Part shown: in pieces, positions 4,225-32,414 of the stretch | Layout: every line of letters begins with the position of its first letter | Numbering within the stretch: position 1 is the first letter of the stretch | From: a virus | Lineage: Duplodnaviria; Caudoviricetes | Virus record (IMG/VR): IMGVR_UViG_3300044471_000009 | Span: 25,968 to 89,967 of that record | Length of the DNA: 64,000 bases | Strand: one strand, 5' to 3' | The notes under the pieces: generated by a model | What the model saw: only the letters and a program-made list of their open reading frames with translations | What the model was told of the DNA's origin: nothing | The model's database searches: none | Translations under genes and position numbers: made by a program

Positions 4225-5292
4225 ATGTCATTCATAGTTCGACCGCTTTCAACACCTGCCCCGCAGGTTGTCACTGGAACATATTCCGTGCTTTCAGGCT
4301 CCGATGTAATTATCGAGGCCACGGGAAATGCAACAGGTAAACTCAAACTGAAATACAACTTCAGTTTTGCGTGTCCAGCCGCCGAATCAGGTGCTGTGAT
4401 GTGCAAGCTACAATACAGCTTGCAACCTTCTGGCCTTGCGGCGAGCTGGCAGACGTTATCAACAGCTAACTGCCCTGTTAAAATAACAGCAGGCCAACCT
4501 TTTCGTGCCGATATTGGCGGGCCGCATACGCTTCTAAGCGGCATTCCCGCTGGATATGAGCTGCAATACCGAGTAATGATCGCGCTTGGAGCTGACAGCG
4601 GCCCGGTTACGGTTTATGACAGTTCATCGTCTCCATCGTTTCACATTGACGTTGCGCAGGGAGAAAGCAACATCGGCGTGATCAAGATTTACGCCCTCAC
4701 TGCCGTAGGCGTATCTGCCGAAGCATGGGGTGGCGTGGCTATTTTAATGAAAGCCGATGCAGCGGTAGGGGTTTCCGCTGAAGCGTTTGGTGGCGTGGCA
4801 ACCTTGACGAGAGCTGATGCCGCGGTTGGTATTTCCGCTGAGGTTTTCACAGACCATACTGACCCGATCAGAATCAAGCCGCCGCAGGTCACGGAGCCTG
4901 TCGTTCAGGCTCTTAAAGCTGATTGGAAGGCTATTAGCGGGACAACTATCTTGATTGAGGAAAGGGTTGCTGGGTGGCTTCCTCATTACGCTGCGCTCTC
5001 GTTTCATGTGCCATGCAAAGCAACAGGGACAAGCGGAGGCGAAGCAGATTTCAAGGTTATGCGCTCGGTTGACGATGGCGCGTGGGTTGATGTTATTCTG
5101 GCTGTTGATTCTTGGAGCGGTACCGAGGGGGTAGCGGTGCTTGAGTGGACGATAGACCAGACAGCAGGAATCGCAGCAAACACATCTGTGCGTTATCGCT
5201 TGTACGGAAGATTTGCAGCGGCAGGACATGAGGTGGAAGTCAACAGCACCGGGAAGCCCGGCGCAACATACAAACCGGACTTTGAGGTATAA
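4225..5292 (+). CDS. Virion accessory protein: two beta-sandwich domains joined by 20-aa repeats
   Basis: 355 aa with GAGGA RBS; internal duplication visible in the translation. Confidence 0.6.
   Translation: MSFIVRPLSTPAPQVVTGTYSVLSGSDVIIEATGNATGKLKLKYNFSFACPAAESGAVMCKLQYSLQPSGLAASWQTLSTANCPVKITAGQPFRADIGGPHTLLSGIPAGYELQYRVMIALGADSGPVTVYDSSSSPSFHIDVAQGESNIGVIKIYALTAVGVSAEAWGGVAILMKADAAVGVSAEAFGGVATLTRADAAVGISAEVFTDHTDPIRIKPPQVTEPVVQALKADWKAISGTTILIEERVAGWLPHYAALSFHVPCKATGTSGGEADFKVMRSVDDGAWVDVILAVDSWSGTEGVAVLEWTIDQTAGIAANTSVRYRLYGRFAAAGHEVEVNSTGKPGATYKPDFEV
4702..4848 (+). repeat. Degenerate 60-nt tandem repeat (about 2.5 copies)
   Basis: Units start at 4702, 4762 and 4822 and encode AVG(V/I)SAEAxGGVAxLxxADA. 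Confidence 0.85.
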
Positions 5293-5294
5293 AA

Positions 5295-6932
5295 ATGGCT
5301 ACAAGGAACCAGTCAGACGCAATCCGTCAAGAGCTTAACGGAACTTGGCAGCAGATCAGCGGCGCGTTCAACTTCTCATACACTTCGATTGCAGGATTTC
5401 CAAGGCTGCTGCTGCATCACGGCGGCTGGCTGCGTGTGCTTGCTGCTTCCGGTTCAATTCTTTGGCTGAAGCCGGAATATCAAGTTGACGGCGGAACATG
5501 GGCTGACTCCGGCTCTGGCCCTGATGGACTTAAGCTGACATTCCCTGACGGCAAAGATGGTCTTGTTCCTTTGCAATGCAATCGCCCGTGCTTCCCGACA
5601 GCTTATCCAGCCGGAACAGTGATCAATACGCGAGTAATGGCAAAATGCAGCGGATCTGTTGTTCTGTGTGACAGTCTGCTTGTTCCGCAGGCCGAAGCTG
5701 TCAAAACGTGGATGCAAAGCGATTCCTATCAATGGAACGAGGCTGAGGATGACCCTGCTGGATTGGCAATCCTAAAAATAGGCTCTCCTGCGGGAACCGG
5801 GGCTGCATGGACTGCATCAAATACTAACGTTCAGCTTGTTCCTTTATCTGGAAACAGATTCGCATGGCACAGCAGGAATTCTGATGTTGGAAGGACAAAG
5901 ACTGATACAGTTGTCGGGCAGGTTGATTCAGCAGGCGGCTTCTCTTTCGGAGCTATTTCAGTCCAAGACAACCACGCATCGTCATCATTGTCTTCAAATA
6001 CCTACTGCGTAGTTCCAATTGGGAACGGTAAGTTTGCAAGATACAGGACAAATCCAACGTCTTTTGATATCTACGACTGTGGGTCGTCAGGACTCGTTCC
6101 AAGCCTTGCGGCTACGGCGCAAGGGTCTGTTTCGACTTTAAGCTATGGCTGCAAAGACTCTTTAATGTGTGACGAATCGCATTTAGCTTTATTGCCTGAC
6201 TACTTAGGGTCATTCCCTGGTTACTATAACGTTCTGTATATATATAGCATCAATAACGTGTCGAATGCTGTTGGGGCTGAATTTGTAACCAATAGCATTT
6301 GGAGCGATACTGGACGTGTACTTTATGGAACTCCTGCTCCTTTCGCAGGATGTAGCGCGAGTGGCGGCTTTCTTGTGTCAGGAGCGACGGCTGTTAATGG
6401 GGCAAGTGTTGAGATGTCTATATCTTATGTAAACAAGACATCAGGCTCCGCAAGTAAGTTTACGTGTGCAGACGCGACTGGAAAGCCAATCGCAATTCAT
6501 TGTCAACCAGACGGTAAGTTTGCGATTGCTTATATAATCCCAACAGGAGCAGTAAGGGTTCGCTGTGGGGTTCTCGCTGGATCGTCAATAACATTTGGCG
6601 GATATTTTGATTATGCAGATGGGTCAATTTTAATGACCGACTCGTTTCACGAAGCAAGTATCAAATCTGACAACGCAGGTGAATTTGTTTTATGCTTACA
6701 GGACAGAACGAGCAATACAACTCAATGTATTGCGTTTAGCACTGATGGTTCAACCGTTTCTTGCGCAGATACAACAGGAATATCTTACACTAAAGGTTCT
6801 GTTGTTATGACGCTAATTAGCACCGGGTTCGCTGGCAAATATGTCTTTGGAAATTACGGCGCATCTGGAAGTACAGATTTTCCAGATGCAAGCGAGCGTT
6901 ATACGTCAATGATAGAAGTAGCTGATTTATAA
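5295..6932 (+). CDS. Putative receptor-binding/tail appendage protein
   Basis: 545 aa; shared N-terminal beta-sandwich plus a Ser/Gly/Thr-rich, probably all-beta C-terminus. Confidence 0.5.
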   Translation: MATRNQSDAIRQELNGTWQQISGAFNFSYTSIAGFPRLLLHHGGWLRVLAASGSILWLKPEYQVDGGTWADSGSGPDGLKLTFPDGKDGLVPLQCNRPCFPTAYPAGTVINTRVMAKCSGSVVLCDSLLVPQAEAVKTWMQSDSYQWNEAEDDPAGLAILKIGSPAGTGAAWTASNTNVQLVPLSGNRFAWHSRNSDVGRTKTDTVVGQVDSAGGFSFGAISVQDNHASSSLSSNTYCVVPIGNGKFARYRTNPTSFDIYDCGSSGLVPSLAATAQGSVSTLSYGCKDSLMCDESHLALLPDYLGSFPGYYNVLYIYSINNVSNAVGAEFVTNSIWSDTGRVLYGTPAPFAGCSASGGFLVSGATAVNGASVEMSISYVNKTSGSASKFTCADATGKPIAIHCQPDGKFAIAYIIPTGAVRVRCGVLAGSSITFGGYFDYADGSILMTDSFHEASIKSDNAGEFVLCLQDRTSNTTQCIAFSTDGSTVSCADTTGISYTKGSVVMTLISTGFAGKYVFGNYGASGSTDFPDASERYTSMIEVADL

Positions 6933-24222: not shown

Positions 24223-24617
24223 AGCGATTCCTAAATTTTTAGTTGTCAAGATAAATAGCTTGCAAGGCTGAAAAATGCCGGTACTTTCCCGGCTGTCAGC
24301 ATTTTCATCGCCTATCGCTGGCATCTCCCCGATTTCGCCCGTCTGCCATCCGCGCCATCCATTTAGGCGATGGACTCCTTGCAGCTTATTGTAATATGGT
24401 CGCTACTCACCATTTTGCGCCTTACATGCACCCGACCTTTTCTGGTAGCGCAGCGGGTTGTTTTTTTTGTTCTAACAAAAACGGCTTGCCTAATTTTTTT
24501 ATGCCGGTGCGCCGCAACACCGGCCCGGTGCCTAACCGGAATCCCGATCAACCATCAAGATCGGGCGAGAACACACAGGCAGGCAGCATCAGGCATCACT
24601 GTGATGAAGCAAAAAAA

Positions 24618-24796
24618 ACGATCAGGCAGGGTTTTAACCTGCACGGCAACATTTAACTTCCTGTCAATTCAGGCGCGTACATTCAAGGCTTTTTTAAAAG
24701 CATACGCCTTGCTTGCTCCAAGTCCAAGCAAGGGTTGCTGTCATGTCGTTGCCACGTAACCCACAAACATGCGTCTATCTATTCCGCCACTGATCG
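24618..24796 (-). ncRNA. tRNA-Leu-scaffold RNA with a 109-nt variable arm
   Basis: Acceptor CGATCAG/CTGATCG, D arm TG-GCG-GAATAGATAGA-CGC, T arm GCAGG-TTAAAAC-CCTGC, variable arm closed by GGCAAC/GTTGCC, then a T8 tract. Confidence 0.75.
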
Positions 24797-24803
24797 AGAA
24801 CCC

Positions 24804-24974
24804 TTAAAACAAACTAATAAAATATCTAACCGCCACTGTCCATGCCCACGGAGGAAAGCAGAAGGCCAAGACCCATCCCCACCCATGCGACAATGCTGTT
24901 CCAAAAATCCATAATACAACCAGCAGTGCCGTTAGTGGGGAGTTTGTGTTTACTGTAAAACCTACCTGCTTCAT
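24804..24974 (-). CDS. Small membrane protein (56 aa, below the ORF-track cutoff)
   Basis: Hand translation MKQVGFTVNTNSPLTALLVVLWIFGTALSHGWGWVLAFCFPPWAWTVAVRYFISLF. Confidence 0.65.
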   Translation of the reverse strand: MKQVGFTVNTNSPLTALLVVLWIFGTALSHGWGWVLAFCFPPWAWTVAVRYFISLF

Positions 24975-30389: not shown

Positions 30390-32414
30390 TTAGATATTAA
30401 CCTGCAAAGTGCGAGTGAATGCACCGGTTACACGAACTAAAACGCTGCTGCGCTGAGTCAGTGAAAACCCAAGGCCGCTTAATTGCTCATCAGATTTTCC
30501 AGTCTTCACTTTTGCGCCGACCATCTCAAGCACCTTTCTGTGCGGCGTTAAAGACTCTTTCAGGAACTCGTTGTAAAACCCCCGCGCCTCTCCTTCGTTG
30601 ATACATCCGTTCAGCATGAAGAACACATGCTTGTTACCTATGCCGCTCTCGCCCCAGTAATTCGGCGAGTACATGATAGCATCAACTCTTGCGTACTGCA
30701 TAGTCTTCAAGCCCCAAGCATCCTTTGAAGCTGTAGTTGATGGCAGTTTTGGCTCAACGGTTACAAACCCACCTTTAATATGCAGAACTGCCACTTCTAC
30801 GCTCTCGTTACTCCGCAAACCCTTATCATAAGCAAAGCTATGCACAATACCGCCAACCTCTATCTCCACTTCAAAACCGATACCATCCGAACGACGATTA
30901 TAGTTGTTTACGGAGAGACGGTAAGCACCATCTCGCATAGTTTTGATATTCTCGTAGAAGATGTTCTCAACCGGATGTGGGCGCGGGCCATCTGCTCCGT
31001 TTGCATCCACATCCAACATCCCTCCGTTGCCCGAAAGCTGGCGGCGGCAACGCCAATAAACTGTACAGCCAGTTGGCTCTTGCATGTGGAGATCAAGATC
31101 ATCAGAGTATTCCCATGCCAACCGGCAGCAAACCTCGCCAGTAACGTTGCCCCCTGCTGCCTTTACCCGCTCTTTGATTGAGTCTGCGAAGTTGCCGTTG
31201 TATGACCAACTAAAGGCGTTGCCCCATTTAAACATCAGCTCCGTTGTGGGATCACTTGGCGCAACCAGAGATACAAGATTGTTGAGGTGCTTATTTTCTA
31301 CCAGCACCTCAACCGTTGATGCCGTTGGAATGACCTTAGTGATAAACTCATCAATTCCGATCTGCTCAACATTTGAGGAGACCTTGGCTTTCTTGGCTGA
31401 ATCATTGATCAGGGAGTCAAACACGTCATGGTTGATAACCTTCTTTATTGACCGATCAGCGAACAGAATTTCATTCACGCTGATGTCACCCAGCGTCGCG
31501 TACCGTCGCTCAAGCGCAGATGTCATGCCAAGCTCTGCAATCTTCTCCTTCGCTGCGGCAATCATCTTTGGTGTGACTAAGGCTGTTGGGCGTTTGTAAT
31601 TCGCTGGAGCCACCACTTGCTCGTAAGCCCGTACAGCTTGATCGATCTCTTTACCATCGCTCAAGTCAATAAGCAGCGTCCCAATTGCGGTATTGCGAAT
31701 GCGCAATATAGAGCCGCTGGTCTTCAGTTTTGGATGCGCAGAATACCATATCGCTAATTCCCGTTGGCTATCCGACAGCTCAATAAACCAATTCTTGCAA
31801 GTCAGAAAAGCATTCAACGCAAATTTATGCTCTTCTCCGCGATACAGCGAGTTCTGAGCAATCAGCTCAAGCACGGTCTCTACTGATTCAAGAGACAGTT
31901 CATTCAGGCTGCGCTTGAACACGTCGAAATCTGCGCGTGTCTGGCTTAACATGGAGCCTGCGTCACGAATAACGCATGAAGCTGGAATGTTCACATGGAA
32001 ATGATAATAAGTATGAACACCATCTACAAGCTGCTCGAAAGACTTCTCTTGTCCAGCTACCGGCTGGTCGTGAGTGAAAATATTTGCAATTGCTTTGCTT
32101 TTCACGTAAGCGGAAAGCGCATCGGCAACAGCTTGATATTCGTCATCAACGCGAATATCCCAGATGCTTTGCAGCTTGTAGCCTTCTTCGTCTTTGATGA
32201 TAGCGACGGCATTCCCGACAGCACGAATGAAACCCTTACAGCAAGAGCAGTCATGCTCAGTCCGCTCGCGGTAAATTGGATTGGTTCCAGCAGGAAACGC
32301 TCCGAGGTAAGTTTCAATGATGCCATCTCGGTCGGTGCCGGTGCGGAACATTGGGTACTGCTGCATGTCTGCAAACTGCTTTGCAACTGCTCTGGAAAAC
32401 TTCTGGAAATTCAT
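30390..32414 (-). CDS. Conserved phage protein with HDCSCC motif and YfaP/DUF2135-like domain
   Basis: RTEHDCSCCKGFIR; RLAWEYSDDLDLH...LDVDANG...PVENIF. Confidence 0.7.
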   Translation of the reverse strand: MNFQKFSRAVAKQFADMQQYPMFRTGTDRDGIIETYLGAFPAGTNPIYRERTEHDCSCCKGFIRAVGNAVAIIKDEEGYKLQSIWDIRVDDEYQAVADALSAYVKSKAIANIFTHDQPVAGQEKSFEQLVDGVHTYYHFHVNIPASCVIRDAGSMLSQTRADFDVFKRSLNELSLESVETVLELIAQNSLYRGEEHKFALNAFLTCKNWFIELSDSQRELAIWYSAHPKLKTSGSILRIRNTAIGTLLIDLSDGKEIDQAVRAYEQVVAPANYKRPTALVTPKMIAAAKEKIAELGMTSALERRYATLGDISVNEILFADRSIKKVINHDVFDSLINDSAKKAKVSSNVEQIGIDEFITKVIPTASTVEVLVENKHLNNLVSLVAPSDPTTELMFKWGNAFSWSYNGNFADSIKERVKAAGGNVTGEVCCRLAWEYSDDLDLHMQEPTGCTVYWRCRRQLSGNGGMLDVDANGADGPRPHPVENIFYENIKTMRDGAYRLSVNNYNRRSDGIGFEVEIEVGGIVHSFAYDKGLRSNESVEVAVLHIKGGFVTVEPKLPSTTASKDAWGLKTMQYARVDAIMYSPNYWGESGIGNKHVFFMLNGCINEGEARGFYNEFLKESLTPHRKVLEMVGAKVKTGKSDEQLSGLGFSLTQRSSVLVRVTGAFTRTLQVNI

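Follow-up and report, generated by a model that had tools for sequence, protein, structure and literature searches.

A phage tRNA-like element with a constant frame and differing inner cassettes, possibly a non-decoding functional RNA

Genomic setting and parts of element W

The DNA analyzed here, referred to as the window, is a stretch of 64,000 nucleotides (nt) from an uncultured phage of the Caudoviricetes, and forms part of the IMG/VR virus record IMGVR_UViG_3300044471_000009, which comprises 89,967 bp and is estimated to be 78% complete. Its subject is a 179-nt tRNA-like element on the minus strand at 24796–24618, designated W for the window version. Structural genes occupy the plus strand of the window up to ∼22.4 kb, and a minus-strand block running from ∼50 kb down to 22.4 kb encodes ThyX, helicases, DnaB, and a replication initiator. 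W lies on the coding strand of this block, with its first nucleotide, C1, 8 nt past the stop codon of a gene of 56 amino acids (aa) for a small membrane-type protein (24804–24974, minus strand; phrog_16613). It opens a gap of 480 nt that precedes a 169-aa gene, and no promoter-like site was found upstream of it. The five genuine tRNAs of the phage sit 45 kb from W, and CCA is encoded in all five.

All parts of W are given below in minus-strand reading. The acceptor is composed of a 5' strand CGATCAG (24790–24796), whose bases are the same in all alleles of the relatives described in the next section, and a 3' strand CTGATCG (24619–24625), which abuts the T arm directly; together they form seven of seven Watson–Crick pairs beginning with C1:G72. 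A TG dinucleotide then precedes the D arm (24771–24787), which is of the tRNA-Leu type (GCG, 11-nt loop, CGC), with G18 present and A at position 19. The anticodon-like hairpin (24754–24770) has the 7-nt loop TGTGGGT, with G at position 33 in place of U33, and its stem reaches four of five pairs only in a shifted register, the one adopted in a preliminary description of the locus. The next part is a 109-nt arm (24645–24753) closed by GGCAAC/GTTGCC and predicted to fold as a three-way junction, and GT separates it from the T arm (24626–24642; GCAGG-TTAAAAC-CCTGC), in which the stem is kept and C56 is lost from the loop, position 56 being A. The first T of the T8 run that follows (24611–24618) occupies the discriminator position; no CCA is encoded, and the run is the likely transcript end. 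The acceptor with its C1:G72 pair, the Leu-type D arm, the weak anticodon arm, the closed long arm, the GT, the T arm, and the T8 run had all been claimed in the preliminary description, as had the lack of CCA and the A at positions 19 and 56, and each was read again here from the minus strand.

The intact helices of W are the acceptor (7/7), the D stem (3/3), the T stem (5/5), and the closure of the long arm (6/6), and direct reading, the predicted fold, and a descriptor scan all show the acceptor, D, and T arms arranged and spaced as in a tRNA. Missing from W are U33, G19, C56, A73, and an encoded CCA, and the contacts of G18 and G19 in the D loop with U55 and C56 in the T loop are incomplete, since positions 19 and 56 are both A. 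In the minimum free energy (MFE) structure predicted for all 179 nt, the acceptor, the long arm, and the T arm are present (z −2.2). Folded alone, the 109-nt arm gives a z-score of −3.19, with an equally good fold in one of 200 shuffles; its sequence is unmatched in its own genome, in the related loci, in IMG/VR, and in GTDB genomes. A 16-codon open reading frame (ORF) previously noticed inside this arm (24694–24744, minus strand) is present and is judged not to be a gene.

Relatives carry different cores in the same frame

No cultured phage matches the element by DNA, and neither W nor the allele designated B below has a match in a phage collection of 50,697 records. Searches of IMG/VR with the neighboring proteins returned no relatives, and a search with ThyX returned 28 distant loci, none of which contains the element. 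A 94-aa neighbor protein belongs to a cluster of nine, and the contigs of this cluster (L031–L041, L087, and L088) align to the window at 87–97% identity. In nine related contigs the alignment reaches 24779 and resumes at 24642, so that 55 nt replace the 136 nt of the window between these BLAST breakpoints (24643–24778, minus strand); the short version, allele B, is likewise carried by L031 and L037. The 109-nt variable arm proposed earlier is better described as part of an allele-specific cassette of 136 nt that takes the place of one of 55 nt.

Allele B is 97 nt long and has the first 18 nt, the T stem, and the acceptor as in W around an unrelated core of 55 nt; its hairpin at the anticodon-arm place has the loop GGAGGAG, and its T loop is the canonical TTCGAGT or TTTGAGT. 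A third version, allele N, is found in L088. It is 133 nt long with a core of ∼100 nt, agrees with W in 25 of its first 26 bases, and has a full Leu-type D arm with GG, a hairpin loop TTCAATT in which CAA is a Leu anticodon, and a T-arm stem CTGGG/CCCAG; its core differs from those of W and B. The other versions have in common with W only the first 18–26 and the last 8–25 bases. All three alleles lie at the same place, right after the 56-aa gene, which the element always follows, and before a T-rich run. Thus one position in a small clade of uncultured phages holds a constant frame, made up of a C1:G72 acceptor, a D arm of the Leu type, a T stem that has a 7-nt loop and abuts the acceptor, and a T run, and the sequence between the two loops is wholly different among W (136 nt), B (55 nt), and N (∼100 nt).

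The contigs L038–L041 are the closest comparison, being 97% identical to the window upstream and 98% identical downstream, yet they carry allele B, and within the element they share with W just the first 18 nt and the last 25 nt. Near-identical flanks around unrelated cores therefore indicate that the stretch from D loop to T loop has been exchanged recently as a cassette on a constant frame. The donor would have been a diverged homologous element and not random DNA, because the five changed bases of the T loop lie past an identical GCAGGTT. Pattern scans found no donor, host source, or further allele: the shared 18-mer gave two chance matches in IMG/VR and 43 in JGI metagenome contigs, none with the 3' partner, and the cores of W, B, and N have no matches in GTDB genomes or IMG/VR. 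The cross-allele comparison rests on three alleles, of which W and N are each represented by one sequence.

In the phage collection the only match of allele N is a 41-nt tRNA-Leu-like half in a Bacillus phage. A stretch of Bacillus phage vB_BauS_KLEB27-1 (L097; OM654379, 63843–63879) is intergenic and unannotated, and resembles tRNA-Leu(UAA) from the 5' end through the anticodon loop; the matching 3' half is absent, and ARAGORN calls no tRNA there.

Acceptor pairing is 7/7 in W and in three B variants and 6/7 in L031, L037, and N. The D stem and an extra arm are found in every allele; so are a hairpin in the place of the anticodon arm, its loop 7 nt long, and a T arm (5-bp stem, 7-nt loop) that directly adjoins the acceptor. 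The pairs of the T stem remain Watson–Crick though changed, with A:T replaced by G:C in L031 (GCGGG/CCCGC) and three of the five pairs changed in N. Between lineages allele B is 91–95% identical, as compared with 83–89% for the upstream coding flank and 72–84% for the downstream spacer.

Protein-coding readings of the region were also considered and set aside. A plus-strand ORF of 129 aa (24370–24759) has no Pfam match, and in L036 and L037 its reading frame is disrupted. An in-frame extension of the 56-aa gene by read-through is present in B; W, with two additional bases, has none. The 16-codon ORF is confined to the W-specific cassette and has no counterpart in alleles B or N, and no conserved coding frame that could explain the region was found on either strand.

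Recognition by RNA models and expectation by chance

That tRNA scanners would pass over the element, as had been anticipated, is borne out: ARAGORN at default settings calls no gene in the window, Rfam gives no tRNA match on W either at gathering thresholds or at E ≤ 10, and a search of the whole genome with RF00005 at E ≤ 10 returns seven places that do not include W. Rfam scans of W, B, and N return nothing for any of them. With introns allowed and the threshold set to 90%, ARAGORN reports a tRNA-Ser(GGA) with a 91-nt intron, the ends of which are exactly those of W.

The bare skeleton, formulated as a descriptor with a 7-bp stem, an abutting hairpin of 5 bp and 7 nt, and a 3-bp D stem within up to 230 nt, is by itself weak evidence, because 0.7 occurrences are expected per 90-kb genome in Markov simulations; one other match, probably due to chance, was found. 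The spelling of the D arm of W is that of the ARAGORN-called tRNA-Leu genes of a jumbo-phage locus (L008) and unlike that of the Tyr and Ser genes of the same locus. Furthermore, a cloverleaf covariance model built from allele B only, that is, from relatives without W, matches W at 28.8 bits with an E value of 4e-5; the same model scores real Ser, Tyr, and Leu tRNAs, including T4 tRNA-Leu, at 20–30 bits. Because the Leu-type spelling of the D arm, the same place in relatives, and the match to the B model coincide, W is taken to be real, and judged by these comparisons it is neither a product of chance nor a lone relic. Descent from a Leu-type tRNA is supported.

An ordinary decoding tRNA was rejected as a reading of W, as the tRNA models miss it, U33, G19, C56, A73, and CCA are absent, and the anticodon stem has four of five pairs. 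By the same reading of decoding features no allele is able to decode, and none encodes CCA, unlike the five real tRNAs of the phage, in agreement with the earlier view of W as a non-decoding RNA.

Comparison with known tRNA-like RNAs

The nearest published analogue is species 1 RNA (rnaC) of phage T4, a stable small RNA whose role is still unknown (PMC3014915, PMC9697503). The rnaC sequence (NC_000866, 70908–71046) was read and folded for comparison. Like W it is phage encoded and falls within a length of ∼140–180 nt, and it has a T arm beside a short stem formed by both ends, a large inner domain, and no usable anticodon arm, so that the likeness in kind to the stable RNAs of T4 pointed out previously is upheld. 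The two differ in that rnaC has no sequence homology to W, has a canonical TTCGAAT loop, and lies within a tRNA cluster, whereas W combines a complete 7-bp acceptor with a Leu-type D arm, lies at an operon end 45 kb from the cluster, and occurs as exchangeable alleles; the covariance model (R1) matches T4 tRNA-Leu and not rnaC. Polymorphism comparable to that of W, B, and N is not known for rnaC.

With class II tRNAs (tRNA-Leu, RF00005) W has in common the 7-bp acceptor, the TG, the Leu-type D arm, a long extra arm, and a 5-bp T stem with a 7-nt loop. The extra arm of an ordinary class II tRNA is roughly 13–21 nt, whereas that of W is 109 nt, and W further differs in having no U33, G19, C56, A73, or CCA and in being missed by the models.

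Non-decoding RNAs with a tRNA-like module are also represented by YrlA and the bacterial and phage Y RNAs, and in Mycobacterium smegmatis RNase P cleaves YrlA, whose acceptor-like stem is 7 bp long, and CCA is added to it (PMC4201824). In YrlA, however, the arms follow one another from the 5' end in an order unlike that of a tRNA, a Ro60-binding helix is present, and the gene is beside a TROVE gene, whereas the arms of W are in tRNA order, no allele has an Rfam match, and TROVE (PF05731) is absent from the record; an assignment to this family was rejected.

The tRNA-like domain of tmRNA resembles W in having an acceptor and T arm built from both ends with foreign RNA between. Nevertheless, ARAGORN with option -m gives no match even at thresholds lowered to 60–80%, the third acceptor pair is A3:U70 and not G3:U70, Rfam returns no match, W is far too short, and the small ORF is not conserved, being absent from alleles B and N. 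The analogy to tmRNA drawn in the preliminary description, and with it the significance of the ORF, is therefore not sustained.

A further comparison is with tRNA-derived genes kept for roles other than, or in addition to, decoding. Such a role is reported for tRNAOther, a Bacillus cereus pseudo-tRNA (PMC3399842), and phage variant tRNAs are reported to counter tRNA-targeting defenses, as the tRNA-Tyr of phage T5 does against a retron (bioRxiv 10.1101/2023.03.15.532788). Both are near-canonical tRNAs, unlike W, and offer a plausible setting of conflict.

Proposed role and alternative explanations

Roughly even credence can be given to the reading that W is one allele of a polymorphic phage gene for a functional RNA that is derived from tRNA-Leu, tRNA shaped, and non-decoding; from the comparisons above, a working tRNA mimic seems more likely than a dead tRNA gene. 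Such an RNA would be transcribed as the tail of the upstream small-gene operon, because no promoter of its own is seen, and the transcript would probably end at the T run, where the acceptor helix meets the U tract. A 7-bp acceptor stacked on a T arm is the main determinant for RNase P, and it is for this reason, and by analogy with M. smegmatis YrlA, that release at C1 would probably be effected by this enzyme. Once released, the product may remain as a stable RNA that resembles a tRNA and acts away from the ribosome; its constant frame would make it stable and recognizable to tRNA-handling proteins, and specificity would come from the exchangeable inner domain. As for its role, a bait or sponge in phage–host conflict seems most likely, and a decoy, synthetase, or RNase P/Z function is pure conjecture. 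A more elaborate form of this proposal, which we consider unlikely, is a tRNA-scaffolded effector RNA in which hypervariable inner cassettes are traded like anti-defense genes and each baits or sponges a different host factor; a tRNA-targeting nuclease or an RNA-binding immune sensor would be examples of such targets.

Many phage tRNA-like genes are missed by scanners or labelled as pseudogenes, and for the oldest example, T4 species 1 RNA, no role is known after fifty years. What is new here is that phages which are nearly identical have exchanged the entire inner domain within a fixed tRNA frame; such a pattern would be expected if a module were under diversifying selection, but not from a dead gene. 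Should it hold, cassette swapping could show what non-decoding tRNA mimics do, and the element could be a natural counterpart to the engineered tRNA scaffold used for expressing structured RNAs.

Several observations weigh against a functional tRNA mimic. Covariation, which had been suggested as a check, is not significant within allele B, the one alignable allele: a single compensatory pair is found against 11 unpaired cells, and 198 of 500 shuffles are as good. Changes in L037 and L031 break helices by introducing mismatches in the acceptor and the T stem. The B covariance model does not find allele N, the 3' hairpin of which can be extended to 8 bp, leaving a 5-bp acceptor. One of the two contacts between D loop and T loop is absent in each allele (positions 19 and 56 are A in W, B is without G19, and N is without U55), so that an L shape is not assured, and B and N have MFE z-scores that do not stand out. 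Recent spread of B through recombination, as opposed to selection, could explain why it is so well conserved, and the presence of several other degenerate tRNA-like pieces in the same genome raises the prior for relics. The allele set is also small, with only three members, two of them single sequences, and the T arms had to be compared by reading the pairs directly from the sequences, because MAFFT placed N one column off.

A rather unlikely alternative is that all that survives of an old tRNA-Leu gene is a large terminator and 3'-end-protecting structure acting in cis at the end of the operon. In that case the closing stem, the 3' hairpin, and the T run would be the only parts that count, and the interior would be a tolerated loop, free to drift and recombine and without function in trans. 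The position 8 nt after a stop codon and the T run that always follows are as expected for such a structure, as is the finding that only the ends are common to the alleles; the 3' hairpin of N has a GC-rich stem of 8 bp that stands five bases away from T8, and the inner helices of B show no covariation. A terminator, on the other hand, would have no need of the Leu-type D arm that is kept in all alleles or of an abutting 7-nt T loop, and a scan for consensus terminators does not call W. The acceptor helix of W abuts T8, as in an intrinsic terminator, but closes a multibranch structure. A drifting interior is also at variance with a B core that is better conserved than the neighboring coding sequence, with the significantly stable three-way junction of the W core, and with the 7-nt-loop hairpin that each allele keeps at the anticodon-arm place.

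It is improbable that the three versions are neutral relics, that is, decaying pseudo-tRNA genes scarred by insertions and illegitimate recombination. Decay would explain the loss of U33, G19, C56, A73, and CCA from W as well as the acceptor and T-stem mismatches in L037 and L031, and three further CCA-less tRNA-like pieces are present in the tRNA cluster of the same genome. Nevertheless, W has four perfect helices, all relatives found have the element at one and the same position, B has changed more slowly than the sequence on either side of it, and whole structured cassettes have been replaced rather than eroded.

Highly improbable is a recombination site, in which the element would be a tRNA-like attachment or cassette-insertion site for an integrase or satellite. 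Conserved ends around variable content, downstream cargo that varies (RNA ligase, a 127-aa ORF, or nothing), and a repeat of TGCCTGAT 30 nt downstream would be in keeping with this explanation. However, no tyrosine or serine recombinase was found in the 78%-complete record, the variable content is short, non-coding, and itself arm-like, and the 5' pattern gave only chance matches in bacterial metagenome contigs.

It is scarcely credible that W is a decoding tRNA once an insert, either an intron or a processed arm, is removed: although the lowered-threshold ARAGORN call of a tRNA-Ser(GGA) spans the exact ends, it presupposes mismatches in the anticodon stem, a variable arm with almost no pairing, and an intron placed at 36/37, no self-splicing intron, group I intron, or ribozyme is matched in Rfam at E ≤ 10, W has no CCA and a discriminator U, unlike the phage's own tRNAs, and an intron is excluded because the supposed exons differ among sister phages with 97–98% identical flanks, which carry a different core instead of the same exons without the insert. 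The precise splicing to a normal tRNA that the preliminary description named as a refutation of the mimic is thus not borne out.

Neighboring motifs, cargo genes, and other tRNA-like sequences

A conserved hairpin with the stem CAGT/GCTG and the 10-nt loop GATGCCTGAT is located 10 nt past the T run (24584–24601, minus strand; alignment A2). Its loop is invariant in all alleles, including that of L088, and its stem shows compensatory changes to TAGC/GCTA in L036 and GGT/GCC in L031. The loop repeats the TGCCTGAT of the junction between T stem and acceptor, and the motif occurs nowhere else in the window. A phage promoter based on this invariant downstream motif was considered and rejected, the motif being unrepeated in the window.

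The spacer past the element, compared over window positions 24440–24610 with L031–L037, remains conserved as far as a GGCAAGCC hairpin that has an A run on one side and a T run on the other. The cargo past the spacer is an Rnl2-type RNA ligase (PF09414, 47.9 bits) in L031–L033 and probably in L034, a 127-aa ORF in L037, and nothing in L036; in the window there are ∼60 nt and a DUF6575-like gene. The JGI start of the RNA ligase seems too far upstream, and an ATG after GGAG is found at position 3743 of L032. A link of the element to tRNA repair was rejected, since the ligase follows the conserved spacer in some relatives but is absent here and from other allele-B genomes.

Elsewhere in the window, a 674-aa protein (30390–32414, minus strand) matches phrog_1735, a family of unknown function, with an E value of 2e-255. 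It is ∼50% identical to proteins of Caulobacter phiCbK-like phages and Ralstonia phage RSL1, and has matches in 515 phage records, including many Salmonella, Klebsiella, and Bacillus phages.

Outside the window, in the phage's own genome (G000, C1:4270–4335, minus strand), a 66-nt miniature tRNA-like sequence lies just after tRNA-Met. Its acceptor has six of seven pairs with C1:G72, and its T arm is identical to that of allele B in 17 of 17 positions; there is no anticodon arm and no CCA, and the tRNA models miss it. The tRNA cluster holds three more canonical T arms without CCA. Other odd members of the cluster are found on the minus strand of G000 at C1:4899–4966, 5427–5521, and 5182–5264, and comprise a CCA-less tRNA-like sequence scoring 29.6 bits, a fragment scoring 22.7 bits in which a canonical T arm is followed by TCGTTTG, and an 83-nt ARAGORN tRNA-Ser(ACU) with an irregular anticodon stem.
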